Virus record (IMG/VR): IMGVR_UViG_2541047595_000014
Direction: 5' to 3' (one strand)
From: a virus
Taxonomy: Duplodnaviria; Heunggongvirae; Uroviricota; Caudoviricetes
DNA length: 8,857 nt
The notes under the pieces are model-generated. The model worked only from the letters and a program-made list of their open reading frames with translations, was not told the DNA's origin and ran no database searches. The translations under genes and the position numbers were made by a program. Below are positions 2,672 through 8,604 of this stretch, in pieces (position 1 is the first letter of the stretch; each line of letters starts with the position of its first letter).

Positions 2672-3979
2672 TTAAATCCGAAGTGATGTGACTCTTCCGG
2701 TCGGTTTGACAATAGGGAATTGCTTAACGATGAAATAACCTCCGGCATCATTCGGGTGATCATTGCCAGATTTTTTATCAGGCTCCCCCTTATCATCCCA
2801 GACCTGTTGCTCCAGAGATTCGGCATATACCGGACAACGCTTCACATTAACTTTATAGCGACGCTCACCATTGGCATTGCAGAACATTGCATTCATTGAG
2901 TTAACGCGATCTTTTACTGGCGGGTTCGAGCTGTTCACCACAACGTTAAAACCTGCCTGCTTAAGCTGGGCTATATCCGTCGTACTTGCGTTACTTGATT
3001 TTCTGGAATCTCCGGAAGCATCTGGATAAATATAAATCTCCCTCACTTTCCGGTAATCATGCCCGTCATACAGCCAGAAGCGTTCTTTAATGAGGCGGAT
3101 CATATCCGGCGTATCGTAGGCATTGATGATTTCAGTTACCGCACATGGAAGCCCCAAACGCAGCACATGGACGATTCCCGCCATCTTTCCAACGTTAAAA
3201 TCCATCCCAATATAAATCGGCTCCCCTGGCTGCTCCACTTCTTCGCAATTATTCAGTTTCCGGTCAAACTGATGGTAAACAGTACCACTTGTCAGGTTAG
3301 TAAACCGTCCTAGAAGATAGGCTTTAATCAGCTCTGGAGGGTATGATTCAAGAAGTGAAGGAATGTAATCTGCTGGCAGGTTCTTTTCATTATCGAAAGT
3401 AGATGCCTGCACCAGACCATACAGTGAGGCCAGCTCTGTTTTTTCACGCACGGCTTTAACAAACTGCTCGTAGACAAATTTGAATCCTTCCGGCGTGGTT
3501 GTAACGTCAATACCGTTGCGAAGTCCATCAATCTTATAACGCATACGCGCAATTATCTTGCGCCACGCCGTTCTGGCTTTTTCCTTCGGCAAAATGTCCA
3601 GTTCATCCACCAGCGCATTACCAATTTTGAAACCGACGATCGTTTGTGGCTTCTCCATCGATCTGCAGATAGTGGTTCCCCGATACTGGCGTCCGTAATA
3701 AAAGTGAACCTCTTTATTTCCCTCATTAATTTTTACGTTCAATCCCCAGTCAGCAGCAACTTCTTCCACTGTAGGGTAAAAAATATCGCGAATTTGGGGA
3801 TACGTTGGCGCAAAATATCCCTGATTTATACCTGGATGCTCCCAAATCCCCTTGCATATGCCGCCACACCCAACCCATGTTTTGCCCGAGCCAAAACCAG
3901 CAATATAGGCTTTAAATTTATGGGGCATTGAAAGAAATCGCGCCTGAGGCACATTAAGCGTCGGAGAGATCATCTTCAT
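2672..3979 (-). CDS. Terminase large subunit (ATPase plus nuclease)
   Basis: N-terminal Walker A motif AGFGSGKT (encoded around 3878-3898), a hydrophobic-DELD Walker B-like stretch (LVDELD), and C-terminal acidic motifs (IGMDFN, YPDASGD) consistent with an RNase H-like nuclease domain. The ORF track starts at a GTG at 3982; I prefer the ATG at 3979 (AAGGAG Shine-Dalgarno just upstream), though the ATG at 3973 is also possible. Overlaps terS 3' end by 26 bp. Confidence 0.9.
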   Translation of the reverse strand: MKMISPTLNVPQARFLSMPHKFKAYIAGFGSGKTWVGCGGICKGIWEHPGINQGYFAPTYPQIRDIFYPTVEEVAADWGLNVKINEGNKEVHFYYGRQYRGTTICRSMEKPQTIVGFKIGNALVDELDILPKEKARTAWRKIIARMRYKIDGLRNGIDVTTTPEGFKFVYEQFVKAVREKTELASLYGLVQASTFDNEKNLPADYIPSLLESYPPELIKAYLLGRFTNLTSGTVYHQFDRKLNNCEEVEQPGEPIYIGMDFNVGKMAGIVHVLRLGLPCAVTEIINAYDTPDMIRLIKERFWLYDGHDYRKVREIYIYPDASGDSRKSSNASTTDIAQLKQAGFNVVVNSSNPPVKDRVNSMNAMFCNANGERRYKVNVKRCPVYAESLEQQVWDDKGEPDKKSGNDHPNDAGGYFIVKQFPIVKPTGRVTSLRI

Positions 3980-5048
3980 CACTCCTTAATCTGGCATCAA
4001 CCACATTAATATTGATCGCCACAGGCTGGGGATGTTCATTATCCTCCACCGTTTCGATCTCTTTGCGCAGCTTCTGGTTCTCTATTCTGCGCCGTTCAAT
4101 TTCCAGTTCCTGTAGCCGCTTATCTGCACATAATGCCCCGCCAGCAGAAAGCAAACGCAACAATTCACGCCGGGCGGCAGCCTTATCCTCCAGCAGGATC
4201 TCAACACCGTATTTTCCGAGCTTTGACCCTGCATATAATTGCCGCGCATCCCCATCAAGCAGTGTGGTATCAGCCATATAAAGCTGTCCTGTTCCCTCAC
4301 CGCAGCACTTCGGGCAATCAGGATTGGGTATGGCGTTATCAACAAAGCCGAGGCCTCCATATTCCGGCTCGGGTTTACCATCTCTGGAGGCCTGTGCCGC
4401 AGCCTTATCGAATTCTGCAATATCACGCCACTGGTAGAGATGATTCTCGCCCCAGCAATAACGGCAGTTAACACGGCGAAATTGTGCCAACTGATTGGGG
4501 TCGGCCTGGACAATGGCCATCAACTGGCTCACCAGTAAATCCAGGTCTGCGGTATAGCGTTTCTGGTACTGATTGCGGAAGTAGCTGATAGCACGATAAA
4601 CCCTGGCATTTCTAAGCATACGGCTGGCGTTGCTGTTAGCTGTCGCACCTTGCCCCTCATAACCAGCCAGTCGGTATGCCTCTGTCGGCTTTTTCCCCTG
4701 AGCAACCAACATGGCGAATTTTGCCTGCTGGTCAGAAATACCGAATTCATCGGGGCAGAACGAAATTTCTTCCGTGTCCCCCTCAATCAGGAGTGCATCG
4801 GATACAGCCTTTTTTTTCTGAGATTTTCCGTTCTGCCTTTGCGCAGTCTGCGCAGTTTTTTTTCGCGCACTTTTTTGCGCAGTTTTGCGCATTTCTTTCT
4901 GCGCATTTTTCGGAGTTTTTTTGATGTAACGACGGGCTGTTGCGTAGTTCAGTCCCCTTGCTTCACACCATGCCACCGGAGATATACCGGAGCGGGTGTA
5001 TTCAGCAATATACTCCTGCTGCAACGCCCCCCAGTCCGGTCTGCTCAT
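3954..5048 (-). CDS. Terminase small subunit, unusually long multi-domain form
   Basis: 364-aa ORF directly upstream of and overlapping terL. The central region (FAMLVAQGKKPTEAYRLAGYEG...SNASRMLRNARVY) resembles the Terminase_2-type small-subunit DNA-binding fold. It also has an N-terminal HTH-like segment, a Lys-rich low-complexity linker, a C-terminal Cys-x2-Cys...Cys-x2-Cys-Cys motif (CRYC...CPKCC) and a charged coiled-coil-like tail. ATG at 5048 with AGGA about 8 nt upstream. Confidence 0.75.
   Translation of the reverse strand: MSRPDWGALQQEYIAEYTRSGISPVAWCEARGLNYATARRYIKKTPKNAQKEMRKTAQKSARKKTAQTAQRQNGKSQKKKAVSDALLIEGDTEEISFCPDEFGISDQQAKFAMLVAQGKKPTEAYRLAGYEGQGATANSNASRMLRNARVYRAISYFRNQYQKRYTADLDLLVSQLMAIVQADPNQLAQFRRVNCRYCWGENHLYQWRDIAEFDKAAAQASRDGKPEPEYGGLGFVDNAIPNPDCPKCCGEGTGQLYMADTTLLDGDARQLYAGSKLGKYGVEILLEDKAAARRELLRLLSAGGALCADKRLQELEIERRRIENQKLRKEIETVEDNEHPQPVAININVVDARLRSDEDDLSDA
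4805..4925. repeat. Low-complexity repeat tract inside terS (T-runs and GCGCA repeats on plus strand)
   Basis: Plus strand shows tgcgcag / ttttgcgca units interspersed with T homopolymers of 6-8 nt (for example 4810-4817 and 4856-4863). On the coding strand this encodes the Lys-rich linker KKTPKNAQKEMRKTAQKSARKKTAQTAQRQNGKSQKKK. Seen directly in sequence. Confidence 0.8.
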
Positions 5049-5051
5049 CAG

Positions 5052-5303
5052 TTAGTCCTGATTTTTATCCACCCTGAGTAGTTCGCGCAGAGCAAAGGCA
5101 TCCCCTTTTCTGGCAAGCTTAAACAATGCCGCTCGTAACTCGGCTTCACCTTTCGCTCTGCCCTTACGGATGGCCGCATAAAAATCTGTCATTGCTTCCC
5201 GATTTTCTTTCAGTCGGTTCAGATCAACATCCAGAACGTCAGCGATTTGTTGTGCAGTCATCCGGCACGCTGCCAGAGACTCGACTTTCGAATACGGAAT
5301 CAT
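5052..5303 (-). CDS. Small hypothetical protein (83 aa), possibly helix-turn-helix, leading the packaging operon
   Basis: ATG at 5303 preceded by GGGGGTGA (Shine-Dalgarno-like). Stop TAA at 5052-5054 is separated from the terS ATG by one codon (TAA-CTG-ATG) and is in the same reading frame as terS. Basic, helix-rich sequence (TAQQIADVLDVDLNRL...). Function not recognisable from sequence. Confidence 0.5.
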   Translation of the reverse strand: MIPYSKVESLAACRMTAQQIADVLDVDLNRLKENREAMTDFYAAIRKGRAKGEAELRAALFKLARKGDAFALRELLRVDKNQD

Positions 5304-6171
5304 TTGTCACCCCCATTGATATGCAGGGTGTCTTCTTCCTGTATTTTTCGTGAAGGATTTTTACTGCAGCGTTGTTCCAGGTGACCTGATGGTGAATGCG
5401 TTTATGGCTGGCACCCATCAGTGAGATTTTTACGCACGACGGCGAATACATGACGGAGTAAAAACTTTTAACGTAGGTTCCGGAATCCAGATACAGCTCG
5501 GTCATTCCGCCGCTGTTTTTCTGAGTCTGTTTCTGCCCTAACTGGACAGCACCGATCGTCATAAACAATTCACCACAGCGACCGAGATTCGTGTACGTAT
5601 TCACATCCTCGTTAATGCGCCCCATGAATGAGAACGGTCGATCAACCGAACAGATAAAGCTGTTCATTGCCTTGCGTTTCACCCACGAAGCATGGCCGCC
5701 ATTGTCACCAAGAAAATCCCCGCCCTGCGACATAGCGATGGAAAGCGCGGGTATTGATTCGTAATACGCCAGCATTTCAGAAAGGATCGCATCCAGTTTC
5801 CTTATCGGGAAATAGGCCTGGTCATAGTTGCGATCCACCCGAAACTGGAACTCGTGATAATCATCATCGAGCTGAATGAAGTATTTACACCCGACCAGTT
5901 TTGCCAGGTCGAAACAGGCATTACGGGCGTAAAAAATTGAGCGGCGATCACCAAAATTATCGGCTTCGTCAAAACGACTGGCAATATCGGCTTTGGAAAA
6001 TACCAGCACCTGTTCACCAAATTCAGCCATGTACTGATGCCGTGTCTTATCTTCATCATCAACAACGATAAAAATTTTCCCGGTATAGCCAGCACGACGC
6101 AACGTCCGGTAAGTCAGAACTTTGTCCGGTCGCCCGTGAGTCAGAATAAAGGCGCAAAAATCATCACGCAT
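5239..6171 (-). CDS. GT-A-fold (GT2-like) glycosyltransferase-like protein, apparently soluble
   Basis: Preferred start is the ATG at 6171, immediately preceded by GGGAGGAGGAGGAGG (strong Shine-Dalgarno); the ORF-track start at 6195 is rejected. The N-terminal ~105 aa show the GT2 motif order: AFILTHGRP (first strand), KIFIVVDDED (acidic nucleotide-binding loop), then FYARNACFDLAKLVGCKYFIQLDDDY with the DDD (DxD) encoded at 5860-5868. No obvious transmembrane segment. Function is inferred from motif pattern only. Confidence 0.55.
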   Translation of the reverse strand: MRDDFCAFILTHGRPDKVLTYRTLRRAGYTGKIFIVVDDEDKTRHQYMAEFGEQVLVFSKADIASRFDEADNFGDRRSIFYARNACFDLAKLVGCKYFIQLDDDYHEFQFRVDRNYDQAYFPIRKLDAILSEMLAYYESIPALSIAMSQGGDFLGDNGGHASWVKRKAMNSFICSVDRPFSFMGRINEDVNTYTNLGRCGELFMTIGAVQLGQKQTQKNSGGMTELYLDSGTYVKSFYSVMYSPSCVKISLMGASHKRIHHQVTWNNAAVKILHEKYRKKTPCISMGVTNDSVFESRVSGSVPDDCTTNR

Positions 6172-6958
6172 ATTCCTCCTCCTCCTCCCCGCCATGCATG
6201 ATCTCCACCATGCGCTGCGTCATTCGGACAAATCCATTTTCAATAGCCTGCTGATAATCAATGATCACCAGCGCCGACTCCTCGAAAAGGCACTGAATTT
6301 CAGCGGGGGCATGAGCGTAATAGTCCGCAATTCTGCTGAAATTAAACACTGTGTGACGTTCTGCCGCACACAGGAGGAATTTCTCAATATCAGGATCAAG
6401 GGACGCCGAACGTATCCGGCTGATCAGCTCCTGAGTTTTCGTATCGTCGTACAGTTCACTGATATCCGGTTTACCGCCCGACGGCTCATAAACAGGCGTA
6501 TCAATTTTCGTCGTATACGGCTCCTCCTCATTTCCTGTACCGGGCAAAACATCCGTCAACAGTTCATCAATTTCTGTCGGGATGAAGCCTGTCAGGGAGA
6601 CATCAAAATCAGCATTGATTAGGTCCGACAGCTCCATCCGCAACAGATCTTCATCCCAGCCAGCATTCATCGGCAGGCGATTATCTGCCAGGCGGTACGC
6701 CTTTTTCTGCTCATCCGTCAGGCCAGACAGAACAATGACCGGAACAGAATCCATTTTGAGCATTTCAGCCGCCATAACACGACCGTGACCCGCAATAATT
6801 TTGCCCTTTTCGTCAATCAGCACCGGATTAGTCCAGCCGAATTGCTTAATACTTTCTACCAGTTGTGCCACCTGCTCAGTACTGTGCGTCCTGGCATTGT
6901 GCGCATACGGTGACAATTCTTGTAATGGGCGATAGACTATCTTTAATTTCTCGCTCAT
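6164..6958 (-). CDS. ParB-like nuclease domain (ParB/Sulfiredoxin fold) protein
   Basis: N-terminal ~90 aa (YRPLQELSPYAHNARTHSTEQVAQLVESIKQFGWTNPVLIDEKGKIIAGHGRVMAA) match the ParB N-terminal domain pattern, including the GHGR motif. The C-terminal ~170 aa have unknown function and end in an acidic tail (GGEEEEEYA). ATG at 6958 with AAGG upstream; overlaps the next gene by 8 bp. From memory this may be the full-length counterpart of the short ynaK ORF of the K-12 Rac prophage, but I cannot verify that without a search. Confidence 0.8.
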   Translation of the reverse strand: MSEKLKIVYRPLQELSPYAHNARTHSTEQVAQLVESIKQFGWTNPVLIDEKGKIIAGHGRVMAAEMLKMDSVPVIVLSGLTDEQKKAYRLADNRLPMNAGWDEDLLRMELSDLINADFDVSLTGFIPTEIDELLTDVLPGTGNEEEPYTTKIDTPVYEPSGGKPDISELYDDTKTQELISRIRSASLDPDIEKFLLCAAERHTVFNFSRIADYYAHAPAEIQCLFEESALVIIDYQQAIENGFVRMTQRMVEIMHGGEEEEEYA

Positions 6959-6974: not shown

Positions 6975-7012
6975 AATAAAACGCACCCCAGCAGCCAGTG
7001 CTACTGGGGGCG
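6975..7012 (-). terminator. Candidate rho-independent terminator downstream of trkG
   Basis: Minus-strand RNA: CGC-CCCCAGUAG, loop CACUGG, CUGCUGGGG-(U)-GCG, followed directly by UUUUAUU. That is a 9-bp core stem with one G-U wobble, extendable to 12 bp with a single bulge. It lies between the trkG stop (7096) and the ParB-like gene's ribosome-binding site. Confidence 0.45.
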
Positions 7013-7095: not shown

Positions 7096-8553
7096 TTAGG
7101 AGCGCCAAAAAAAACCTGAAAACAATATAATAACAGGATAAATTTCAAGGCGACCAAGAATCATAGCTATGCACATTAAATATTTTGCAATGTCATTAAG
7201 CACTCCGAATGACGATGCAGTAGCCCCAAAACCTAATCCCATATTATTAATACATGCAGCCACTGTTGCAAATGATGTAAGAAAATCATATCCCATACCA
7301 TTTAACACCAGTATAAAAAACACCGTGAAGAGAGTATAAAGAAAAAAGAAACTCCATACAGACCTCATTACACGATCTGTAACTATCTTCCCTCCTACAT
7401 TTACACTTAACAACGCTCTGGGATGAGAAAGTTGATTTATCTCGTGTTTGCTTTGTTTGAAAAGTATAAGAAATCGAAGTGACTTAATTCCACCACAGGT
7501 TGAACCGATACATCCCCCAAAGAAACTTGACAACAGCAAAAACACTATCGTGTGCGTGGGCCAGTTTGCATAATCCTGCGTAGCTAAACCATTATCAGTG
7601 AGCATGGAGCTGGCAAGAAAAAACGAATGAATAAAACTTCCATGCAAGTCATACATACCTATATGCCAGACCTGGAAAGAGGTAACAATGATCACCCCTA
7701 AGGCTATTAACAGAAAGAAACGAAGTTCAATATCTCTGATTAAAGGTTTTATCGTTTTTCTGCTAATAACAATATACCAAAGAGTGAAGTTGAAAGCCGA
7801 TAGCAGGGAAAAAGAACCAGCCACCAGCTCAACCAAATAGTTATTAAAATATCCGATACTCTCGCTATGAGTTGAGAAACCACCAAGCGAAACTGTGGAA
7901 ATCCCGTGACAAATAGCATCAAACAAAGACATTCCTGCAAGTCTATAACAGACAATACAAGCAATACCTAATAAAGAATAAGTTATCCACAGTGTCCGTG
8001 ACGTATCGGCCAGGCGGGGAGTGAGTTTGTCATCCTTAAATGGCCCCGGCATTTCTGACTGATAAAGCTTTGCACCACCAATACCCAATAATGGCAATAC
8101 AGCAACCGCCAGAACAATAACTCCTAAACCACCTATAAAATTTAACTGTGACCGATAGTACAAATATGCCCGAGGTAATGAACTAACATCATCAATTACA
8201 GTTGCTCCTGTTGTTGTTATTCCAGAAACCCCTTCAAATAGAGCATCAATGAACGTTAAATTAAGTTCTGAGTCAATCCATAAAGGGAATGCACTAATAA
8301 CAGAAAACAAAATCCAAAACATTACAATTATAATAAACCCATCACGGGTACGTAATTGAATGCCAGATTTCTTAGTTGTATACCACGCTCCGCCACCAAT
8401 GCAAAAAAATATAACGAAAGTTATAAAGAAAACGAACAGGCTTTTTTCTTTATAAAACAATGCTACAACCATTGGTGGCAACATTGAAAGACTATAGAGC
8501 CAAACCAGGAACCCACACATATGAGTAACAACTCTTACATGAGATGTATTCAT
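7096..8553 (-). CDS. trkG: Potassium uptake protein TrkG (TrkH/KtrB-family K+ transporter)
   Basis: Translation begins MNTSHVRVVTHMCGFLVWLYSLSMLPPMVVALFY..., which I recognise as E. coli TrkG, the Rac-prophage paralogue of TrkH. It is a multi-pass membrane protein with repeated glycine-containing pore-loop-like segments (TTTGATV, SLGGFST, NNMGLGFG). The ORF track's upstream start at 8571 is a TTG; the ATG at 8553 gives 485 aa, the TrkG length as I recall it. The region is visibly AT-rich relative to the flanking phage genes. Confidence 0.95.
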   Translation of the reverse strand: MNTSHVRVVTHMCGFLVWLYSLSMLPPMVVALFYKEKSLFVFFITFVIFFCIGGGAWYTTKKSGIQLRTRDGFIIIVMFWILFSVISAFPLWIDSELNLTFIDALFEGVSGITTTGATVIDDVSSLPRAYLYYRSQLNFIGGLGVIVLAVAVLPLLGIGGAKLYQSEMPGPFKDDKLTPRLADTSRTLWITYSLLGIACIVCYRLAGMSLFDAICHGISTVSLGGFSTHSESIGYFNNYLVELVAGSFSLLSAFNFTLWYIVISRKTIKPLIRDIELRFFLLIALGVIIVTSFQVWHIGMYDLHGSFIHSFFLASSMLTDNGLATQDYANWPTHTIVFLLLSSFFGGCIGSTCGGIKSLRFLILFKQSKHEINQLSHPRALLSVNVGGKIVTDRVMRSVWSFFFLYTLFTVFFILVLNGMGYDFLTSFATVAACINNMGLGFGATASSFGVLNDIAKYLMCIAMILGRLEIYPVIILFSGFFWRS

Positions 8554-8570
8554 ATCTAAATATTCTTTCA

Positions 8571-8604
8571 ATTATAACCACCTTGCTGCAATATTATGAT
8601 TATA
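8571..8604 (-). promoter_or_regulatory. Candidate promoter region for trkG (two perfect TATAAT hexamers on the minus strand)
   Basis: Minus-strand TATAAT at 8599-8604 and again at 8571-8576, in an AT-rich leader upstream of the trkG ATG. No convincing -35 (TTGACA-like) hexamer found at 16-18 bp spacing, so this is a weak call. Confidence 0.25.

Follow-up and report, generated by a model that had tools for sequence, protein, structure and literature searches.

The ParB-like YnaK protein of Escherichia coli Rac-type prophages carries a C-terminal module linked to TAGT-family glycosyltransferases

The ParB-like proteins that phages encode in association with 5mYOX enzymes are obligate, cognate-specific activators of these thymine dioxygenases, which require them only when the DNA is double-stranded (O'Toole et al., PNAS 2026, PMC13229309). 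They consist of a nucleotide-binding domain (NBD), a helix–helix element, a disordered linker of ~50 aa and a C-terminal domain (CTD), without a DNA-binding domain, and structural predictions place the enzyme between two ParB domains (PMC13229309). An earlier proposal is that phage ParBs guide DNA-modification enzymes while DNA is packaged (Iyer et al., 2013, as cited in PMC8256090). Here we describe a full-length ynaK-type gene, which encodes a ParB-like protein directly upstream of a TAGT-family glycosyltransferase gene. It lies on an 8,857-nucleotide stretch of viral DNA (IMG/VR record IMGVR_UViG_2541047595_000014; the whole stretch is called the window), which corresponds to the late region of an E. 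coli prophage of Rac type; its genes are read from the minus strand.

YnaK is made of two modules, a ParB-like N-terminal one and a C-terminal one of ~110 residues (module 2), and module 2 is accompanied almost without exception by a TAGT gene. We propose with moderate confidence that module 2 binds the TAGT and that the ParB module delivers the enzyme to DNA or activates it there. A first-pass annotation of the window, made from its letters alone, had overlooked that the C-terminal domain goes with the glycosyltransferase encoded downstream and not with ParB. We found no functional study of the ynaK–TAGT pair in the literature and none describing module 2 or its exclusive linkage to TAGT genes; Iyer et al. 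(2013), the paper that defined the TAGT family, may already mention ParB–TAGT adjacency.

Architecture of full-length YnaK

The ynaK open reading frame (ORF) starts with an ATG at position 6958, ends with a TGA at 6164–6166 and encodes 264 aa, from MSEKLKIVY to GGEEEEEYA; the end given in the first-pass annotation is correct, on the minus strand. A match to phrog_620 ('ParB-like partition protein'; E 4.8e-90, residues 1–250 on profile positions 3–217 of 217) and thousands of homologues, with 1812 member sequences in the 98%-identical cluster P0102, show that this is a genuine gene and no chance ORF. By profile and predicted fold, YnaK belongs to the ParB/Srx superfamily and to PHROG 620.

The structure of YnaK was modelled with AlphaFold2 (AF2) on a 67-sequence alignment. 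The model has a mean pLDDT of 83.9 (Table 1), with values below 50 for residues 145–152. The sole Pfam match in YnaK is ParB_N (PF02195) at residues 23–90, with 28.0 bits against a cut-off of 26.3. Foldseek aligned the model with probability 1.0 to ParB (6sdk, 7bnk), Noc (7nfu) and KorB (8qa9), and also to PadC and sulfiredoxin. As this alignment spans 140–146 columns on ParB, Noc, KorB and PadC, the ParB-like part is ~135 residues long; the first-pass annotation had put it at ~90 aa. Homology to phage ParB–DNA methyltransferase fusions likewise runs through residue ~135.

Pairwise alignment with Spo0J matched N21/R23 with the Q/R of Box I (QPR), G57-H58-G59-R60 with the GERR of Box II and D92-N93 with the EN of Box III. 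The phosphate-contacting Box I Arg, Box II Arg and Box III Asn are thereby retained in YnaK. Nearly all of the diverse fused homologues keep the three box positions, in a range that extends from E. coli to a haloarchaeal virus; exceptions are HHTV-2, with a Lys at the Box I Arg, and NTR1, which lacks the Box II Arg.

YnaK is not a canonical partition ParB, as several of the defining features failed when tested. A genuine partition function, which the ParB_N match, the ParB-like fold and the database names would favour (phage records call the same protein a 'chromosome (plasmid) partitioning protein'), is highly improbable. The canonical partition profile TIGR00180 scored 37.3 bits, below its cut-off of 58.45. 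The AF2 model and Foldseek revealed no complete helix-turn-helix (HTH) DNA-binding domain, only helices 103–134 after the N-domain. Structure and profile searches matched the C-terminal module to no ParB domain, so that a ParB dimerisation domain is absent, and Box II reads GHGR instead of GERRxR. No parA is adjacent, the neighbours being trkG and the TAGT gene inside an integrated prophage (parS was not searched for).

The closest relatives of residues 1–135 are the N-terminal modules of phage ParB–DNA methyltransferase fusions, not partition proteins. YnaK matches phrog_498 at E 1.9e-50 and PADLOC MTase_II (PDLC03229) at E 1e-38 over residues 10–144, and the identity of the fusions to YnaK is 40–53% by tblastn (47–51% over the aligned N-terminal region) and ~40% in alignment A6. 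These matches end at residue ~141–144, and in A6 the sequences diverge after ~135. Direct alignment showed that the fusions here enter the methyltransferase domain, while YnaK goes on with YTTKIDTPVYEPSG and the helical module.

Module 2 has the conserved motif YTxKIxxPxYEP, followed by a helical bundle with the consensus FLxxAAxRHxVFNYxKIADYYAH...LMEESALVIID..AIxxGF. In family alignments its invariant residues include Y157, R201 and D234. Both the motif and the helical core with the invariant residues are present at the C-terminus of YnaK (alignments A1, A3 and A5, and profile search). Assignment of YTxKIxxPxYEP to the ParB module was ruled out, since the ParB–methyltransferase fusions lack the motif.

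A protein search with module 2 alone recovered stand-alone proteins of 116–145 aa that contain module 2 and little else and are 50–60% identical. When 1.84 billion cluster representatives were searched exhaustively with a profile, 1401 members were found at E ≤ 0.001, of which 845 reached E ≤ 1e-30, and module 2 lay nearly always at the extreme C-terminus. Architectures were counted in the best 149 of the 1401 representatives. At least 70 residues precede module 2 in 108 of them, and an iterated profile linked 104 of these to the ParB N-domain family. In all, ~70% are fused to a ParB fold, ~41 (~28%) are stand-alone and one has a DUF3102 N-terminus. The ParB-fused representatives span several Box II subtypes, among them GHGR, GHQR, GNMR and GNQR. 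Because it occurs alone as proteins of ~130 aa, module 2 is an autonomous helical domain, unnamed until now.

Searched alone, module 2 gave no significant match in Pfam or NCBIfam and none in PADLOC, and no structural match in PDB or BFVD outside its own family. Nor did Pfam assign a family to the module 2 region of the 149 representatives. The first-pass annotation had said that the C-terminal ~170 aa match nothing recognisable, which stands for the domain on its own; the whole protein, C-terminus included, falls within phrog_620, itself annotated only as 'ParB-like partition protein'. In this widespread family of phage proteins, some 110 residues have thus been without a domain model. A sub-threshold hit to Phage_Gene47 (PF23887, mycobacteriophage L5 gp47-like) was seen at about residues 201–220 (13.8 bits against a cut-off of 27, E 0.041) and in three of the 149 representatives (best E 0.00029). 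We treated it as noise and rejected this identity for module 2; a very distant relationship is possible.

Linkage of module 2 to TAGT genes

The gene downstream of ynaK matches the TAGT family in Pfam (PF20691, E 6.1e-35) and PHROG (phrog_842, E 1.5e-103). Its translation displays GT-A motifs as HGRPD, QLDDDY and INEDV; the motif definition, R...DDD...ED[V/Y/F], comes from a preprint.

To describe the neighbourhood of module 2, loci were picked by module 2 alone and then scanned with profiles. A TAGT ORF lay downstream on the same strand in 80 of 80 diverse IMG/VR contigs, adjacent or overlapping in ~76 of them. Two metagenomic contexts and Lactobacillus phage c5 also have the TAGT downstream, which brings the viral total to 83 of 83. 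A single gene is inserted between the two in three IMG/VR contigs and in the metagenomic locus L003. In an independent set of 80 loci from GTDB genomes of many phyla, the TAGT was adjacent in 75 and 838 nt away in one, that is, present in 76 of the 77 informative loci; three contigs that stop too soon to judge were left out. The one locus that departs from this (L183) is an element ending at host housekeeping genes directly after the domain gene.

The same pattern was found in sequenced phages. All 28 records in which tblastn detected the domain have a TAGT beside it, and two Porphyromonas records found with a hidden Markov model (HMM) make this 30 of 30. Phages with the pair include those of E. 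coli and Salmonella, Lactobacillus c5, phiLdb, PMBT4, jlb1, JNU_P11, Vibrio phages of ~190 kb, Nocardia NTR1 and the archaeal HHTV-2. Conversely, 20 TAGT records seemed to lack the domain: the two Porphyromonas phages, six deletion variants and 12 Aeromonas T4-like phages. In the two Porphyromonas records a diverged module 2 (E 5e-15) is in fact present, fused to ParB and overlapping the TAGT by 17 nt. The idea that distant TAGTs have no partner was therefore half-rejected, as only the Aeromonas T4-like phages do without one. Their TAGT-like protein is distant (23–26% identity) and has an N-terminal extension of its own. In Aeromonas phage Aeh1 p093 (L177 5689–6888) this extension is ~100 aa long and contains QQMPRYEPKDIIDAY, which resembles PxYEPxxxxPxI of module 2; the HMM match falls short of significance (E 0.18). 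The extension may carry the module 2 motif fused straight to the enzyme.

Clustering of the neighbouring ORFs revealed no third shared gene family. The next commonest neighbour occurs in 18 of the 83 viral loci, and two TerL clusters in 15 and 10. Among the 25 most frequent Pfam families there was no TET/JBP, thymidylate-synthase-like or DNA methyltransferase family, although a rare singleton could escape this survey.

The terminase neighbours bear on whether YnaK could be an accessory protein of packaging, either a nuclease of ParB-like type or a DNA binder that aids terminase at pac or cos, its adjacency to the TAGT being incidental. TerS/TerL follow the gene closely in the window, in c5 (where it comes directly after cos), in NTR1 and in a Porphyromonas phage, and in HHTV-2 TerL lies ~3 kb downstream of it; database names include 'ParB nuclease'. 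We consider this explanation very unlikely. Terminase linkage is found at ~25 of 83 loci against 83 of 83 for the TAGT, and in marine phages and Vibrio jumbo phages the stand-alone forms have replication genes as neighbours. Cequinquevirus phages without the gene are viable, an IS3 element interrupts it in several E. coli strains, and YnaK lacks a complete DNA-binding domain.

The two genes overlap from start to stop codon at most junctions. Of 78 junctions, 58 have an overlap of 11 nt, eight of 17 nt, six of 8 nt (as in the window) and one of 14 nt. These overlaps indicate that translational coupling of the module 2 gene and the TAGT is conserved.

The pair also disappears together. Within the genus Cequinquevirus, c5 and phiLdb carry both genes intact. 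A deletion in LL-Ku joins ParB residues 1–36 to the TAGT from residue 69, one in Ld25A joins ParB residues 1–91 to the TAGT from about residue 210, and in Ld17 the ParB/domain gene is gone and the TAGT internally deleted. Each of these three independent deletions takes module 2 plus part of the TAGT. It follows from these deletions that lytic growth does not require the pair and that the two genes degenerate together, as would an accessory function with two components.

Module 2 is acidic, with a median net charge of −5.5 in the family and −14 in the window, and TAGTs are mostly basic (family median +8, pI 9.1; the window enzyme only +2, pI 8.0). This makes it unlikely that module 2 itself binds DNA. 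The same contrast would suit a negative regulator, in which module 2 caps the basic DNA-binding surface of the TAGT like a DNA mimic until the right time or place, for instance until the ParB module engages phage DNA or terminase. The highly acidic, disordered tail would fit such a cap, and strict 1:1 coupling suits a stoichiometric inhibitor as well as it suits an activator. An inhibitor is nevertheless unlikely in our judgement: it would be unusual for a dedicated inhibitor to be encoded upstream and made first, the deletion variants damage the enzyme together with the domain instead of keeping the enzyme alone, and the closest precedent, the 5mYOX ParB, is an activator.

Some loci depart from the simple pair. 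In L003 (6001–8074), from a metagenomic phage lineage, a stand-alone domain gene and the TAGT are separated by a SAM-methyltransferase-like gene, and genes for an HNH protein and a C5 DNA methylase follow just downstream; the whole could be a modification cassette of a more elaborate kind. At four loci where the domain stands alone (L088, L123, L129 and L149), a separate ORF ~3 kb downstream of the pair is ParB-N-like; some phages may provide the ParB function in trans.

Gene overlap, acidic tail and prophage setting

The minus-strand end of ynaK reads ATG CAT GGC GGG GAG GAG GAG GAG GAA TAT GCG TGA. The codons GAG GAG GAG GAG GAA at 6173–6187 encode E258–E262, and the TAGT start codon (ATG, 6171–6169) lies within TAT GCG (Y263–A264). 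The mRNA at this start is GGGGAGGAGGAGGAGGAAU-AUG, and the (GAG)n repeat places GGAGG 3, 6, 9 and more nucleotides from the ATG. The 8-nt overlap, ATGCGTGA at 6171–6164, contains both the TAGT start and the ynaK stop. Direct reading of the sequence thus bears out the first-pass view that the Glu codons are also the Shine–Dalgarno (SD) nucleotides of the downstream gene. The longest-ORF start of the glycosyltransferase gene (6195) is not the real one; RefSeq uses the ATG at 6171, where the PHROG alignment begins.

A single-sequence scan of viral contigs returned only near-identical E. coli prophages, and these loci were used to count the length of the Glu run. Among 80 copies it is E3 in 11, E4 in 54 and E5 in 12, the window being E5. 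In one variant EYA becomes ECA and the TAGT start becomes GTG. Enterobacterial homologues nearly all end in [Y/N/D/H]-A, encoded by NAT-GCN with the downstream ATG inside. Two distant homologues without an overlap (L134 and L136) end straight after the last helix, with no acidic tail. Given the length polymorphism, the NAT-GCN ending, the predicted disorder and these two tail-less proteins, the exact sequence EEEEEYA appears to be mainly dictated by the overlap with the TAGT start and SD.

The acidity of the C-terminus has a wider distribution. In 66 non-redundant overlapping junctions the last eight residues are 37% acidic, against 18% in the rest of the domain (p = 1.6e-12), though only 15 of the 66 have an SD-like 4-mer in this region. 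This enrichment indicates that an acidic C-terminus is a family-wide trait, of which the pure poly-Glu run with a strong SD would be the enterobacterial version. Of the two alternatives in the first-pass annotation, a conserved tail or a by-product of the ribosome-binding site, neither fits alone: the by-product would largely account for the exact Glu run (E3–E5 polymorphism, disorder and overlap), and the acidity is shared across the family.

Existing annotation obscures the gene. PGAP names the protein ynaK or ParB/Srx family N-terminal domain-containing protein. In a 100%-identical genome it calls just the first 86 codons (258 nt; window 6701–6958, equivalent to L002 10702–10959) a 'ynaK' pseudogene, 'missing C-terminus', where the ORF is open over 264 codons. 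The YnaK of E. coli K-12, in the Rac prophage, is the same gene at the same site after trkG, in a short form that we take to be an 87-aa N-terminal remnant; the form in the window is full-length. The pseudogene call probably arose because the truncated K-12 YnaK served as the reference. For genes of this type, both 'partition protein' and 'ynaK pseudogene' are misleading labels.

Disrupted copies were also observed. In several E. coli genomes (H8–H14) an IS3-family element lies inside the ynaK-type gene and splits the ParB annotation in two; these copies are natural knock-outs within otherwise similar prophages. Six proteins (P0171, P0210, P0174, P0183, P0191 and P0205) join the first ~165 residues, at 97–99% identity, to Ail/Lom, tail-fibre-assembly, TerL or other domains. 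They look like products of prophage deletions, as in the K-12 Rac prophage, or like assembly or frameshift errors.

Table 1. Features of the window and regions of the YnaK model (positions refer to the whole 8,857-nucleotide stretch)
Feature	Position	Strand	Basis
trkG, TrkH family	7096-8571	minus-strand reading	Pfam/PHROG profile matches
Terminator-like hairpin between trkG and ynaK, 10-bp stem with 7 G-C pairs, then T run	6986-7009	minus	
ynaK-type gene, full length, 264 aa: ParB-fold module, linker, TAGT-partner module, acidic tail	6164..6958	minus	ORF, phrog_620
Residues 1-135, ParB/Srx-fold NTP-binding-type domain (1-~100) and helix pair (103-134)	6554..6958	minus	Pfam, AF2, Foldseek, PADLOC
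Residues 136-147, acidic, poorly conserved linker	6518..6553	minus	position and length vary in alignment A6
Residues 148-257, predicted TAGT-partner module (module 2), motif YTxKIxxPxYEP then helical bundle	6188..6517	minus	profile, AF2, neighbourhood
Residues 258-264, EEEEEYA, disordered acidic tail; codons form TAGT Shine-Dalgarno and start	6167..6187	minus	sequence, pLDDT, polymorphism
Model residues 1-100, confident ParB-type domain, pLDDT mostly >90			AF2
Model residues 103-134, helices			AF2
Model residues ~135-165, low-confidence stretch			AF2
Model residues 166-230, helical bundle, pLDDT >90			AF2
Model residues 230-257, final helices, less confident			AF2
Model residues 258-264, disordered tail, pLDDT <50			AF2
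TAGT-family GT-A glycosyltransferase, 310 aa	5239..6171	minus	PF20691, phrog_842, RefSeq start
Small TerS-like ORF between TAGT and TerS, 83 aa (RefSeq: 69 aa)	5052-5303	minus	phrog_309, E 8e-23
TerS	3954-5048	minus-strand reading	profile match
TerL	2672-3982	minus-strand reading	profile match

Past TerL, profile matches in the window identified a DUF4055 portal protein and a Mu-F-like head protein. The small ORF between TAGT and TerS overlaps the 3′ end of the TAGT gene and matches the middle part of the terminase small-subunit profile phrog_309; it could have split off from TerS or be an additional TerS-like DNA-binding piece. A 100%-identical stretch is present in E. coli FDAARGOS_1249, in an element that reaches intR beside ttcA and carries recET, ralR, kilR and sieB. 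A 2.1-kb query around ynaK matched 1610 of 5426 complete E. coli genomes (~30%) and was at least 80% covered, and so essentially complete, in 867 (~16%).

The hairpin lies ~28 nt upstream of the ynaK start. In this position, trkG resembles a moron with its own terminator, placed between lysis and packaging genes. As the prophage encodes a Q-antiterminator-like DUF1133 protein, the genes downstream of the hairpin are probably reached by read-through of the late operon. In the early region of the Rac prophage of NZ_CP069459 (L168 7020–9279), a NACHT-domain protein is encoded next to a Mrr_cat-like protein with a restriction endonuclease fold (E 4e-4), and this pair is likely a prophage-borne defence cassette.

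Proposed mechanism and comparison with known systems

The autonomy of module 2, its near-absolute linkage to the TAGT, the coupling of the two genes, their joint loss and the fact that module 2 sits exactly where the ParB–methyltransferase fusions carry their catalytic domain lead us to infer that module 2 is a TAGT-binding subunit and that the ParB module serves in delivery or activation, with DNA as the target. One mRNA would yield a roughly 1:1 complex of module 2 and TAGT. The predicted interface comprises YTxKIxxPxYEP and ESALVIID...AIxxGF. These two segments are the most conserved in module 2 and have the lowest confidence in the monomer model, a combination that may be typical of segments that become ordered on binding. 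By NTP-dependent self-association or by clamping on DNA, the ParB module would deliver the TAGT to phage DNA or activate it there, late in infection and close to the packaging genes. EEEEEYA would be a disordered appendage. Such an assembly would be a non-covalent counterpart of the ParB–methyltransferase fusions and a parallel to the ParB-dependent thymine dioxygenases.

Several points weigh against this proposal. The contact between module 2 and TAGT is a prediction, and adjacency of phage genes could in principle reflect shared regulation instead of a complex. No natural fusion of module 2 to a TAGT occurs among the best 149 of the 1401 representatives. Stand-alone forms show that the ParB module is not needed for the job of module 2. 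An NTP-gated clamp is speculative, because the canonical catalytic residues are replaced in YnaK (Gln by N21, Glu by H58) and because 5mYOX ParBs with mutated NTP pockets still activate their enzyme (PMC13229309). The target is a further difficulty. Characterised TAGT relatives act on 5-hydroxymethylcytosine (5hmC) or 5-hydroxymethyluracil (5hmU), and in the Rac prophage we found no TET/5mYOX, hydroxymethylase or DNA methyltransferase, either by annotation or by testing the unannotated proteins singly. With no source of 5hmC or 5hmU in the prophage or among the recurrent neighbours, the case for DNA as the target is weakened. Another member of the TAGT family, GREB1 (PMC7968844), is an O-GlcNAc transferase that acts on protein.

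These last two points lend some support to a different role for module 2, as the acceptor itself. The TAGT would then glycosylate YTxKIxxPxYEP, for example at the invariant Y157 or at T149/T150, as GREB1 does on protein and glycogenin on tyrosine. The motif is invariant though predicted to be unstructured, and a PRYEP-like motif is found in the N-terminal extension of the Aeromonas T4-like TAGT-like proteins, without statistical significance. However, the phage GT-A family members tested so far glycosylate DNA, the ParB module, with its nearest kin on DNA methyltransferases, points to DNA, and a glycosylated small acidic protein has no apparent role. We therefore regard module 2 as an improbable acceptor and keep to the proposal that it binds the TAGT as a subunit.

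A tentative and rather doubtful extension of that proposal is that the domain and the TAGT form an obligate two-subunit, partner-dependent glycosyltransferase, in analogy to the ParB-dependent subclass of 5mYOX, that works without a hydroxymethyl-pyrimidine precursor. Its product would be an undescribed glycosyl modification on a canonical base, a backbone position or a protein. If true, a partner-dependent TAGT would be carried by Rac-type prophages and by phages of many bacterial phyla and of haloarchaea. In either case the locus raises the question of what the acceptor of a TAGT is in a genome that encodes no TET-type hydroxymethyl-base enzyme. It is a convenient system for such work, with a common E. 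coli prophage, two small genes and natural deletion mutants in dairy phages.

Compared with the ParB/Spo0J, Noc and KorB CTPase clamps, YnaK shares the fold of the first ~140 residues and the positions of the phosphate-binding Arg and Asn. It differs in lacking a full HTH domain, the canonical dimerisation domain and a ParA, and in having Asn and His in place of the catalytic Gln and Glu. The window enzyme is a clear member of the TAGT/base-J glucosyltransferase/GREB1 family (PF20691). This family is named after its association with TET/JBP dioxygenases, whereas no TET/JBP or hydroxymethyl-base enzyme recurs at the domain-carrying loci sampled.

The ParB–DNA methyltransferase fusions (phrog_498; PADLOC MTase_II, PDLC03229) are homologous to YnaK over residues 1–135 and are often encoded near terminase genes. 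After residue ~135 they continue into an N6/N4 methyltransferase domain; YnaK has the predicted TAGT-partner module at this place and its enzyme is a separate polypeptide. Judged by published description, the AF2 model of YnaK has the same layout as the 5mYOX ParB activators, with NBD, helix–helix, linker and CTD and no DNA-binding domain. Both are encoded beside an enzyme of DNA-modification type, which for YnaK is a TAGT and not a dioxygenase. The ParB-dependent subclass of 5mYOX is linked to kinases, GATases and amino acid:DNA transferases, not to glycosyltransferases, and we therefore view YnaK–TAGT as a parallel case and not as the same system. Module 2 also exists without a ParB domain and was almost always found with a TAGT; presumably it is a different, partner-specific module from that of the 5mYOX ParB. 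As a separable, enzyme-associated module it offers a handle on how ParB-type domains are recruited to DNA-modification enzymes, and glycosyltransferases would be the third enzyme class with ParB-type partners, after the dioxygenases and the fused methyltransferases.

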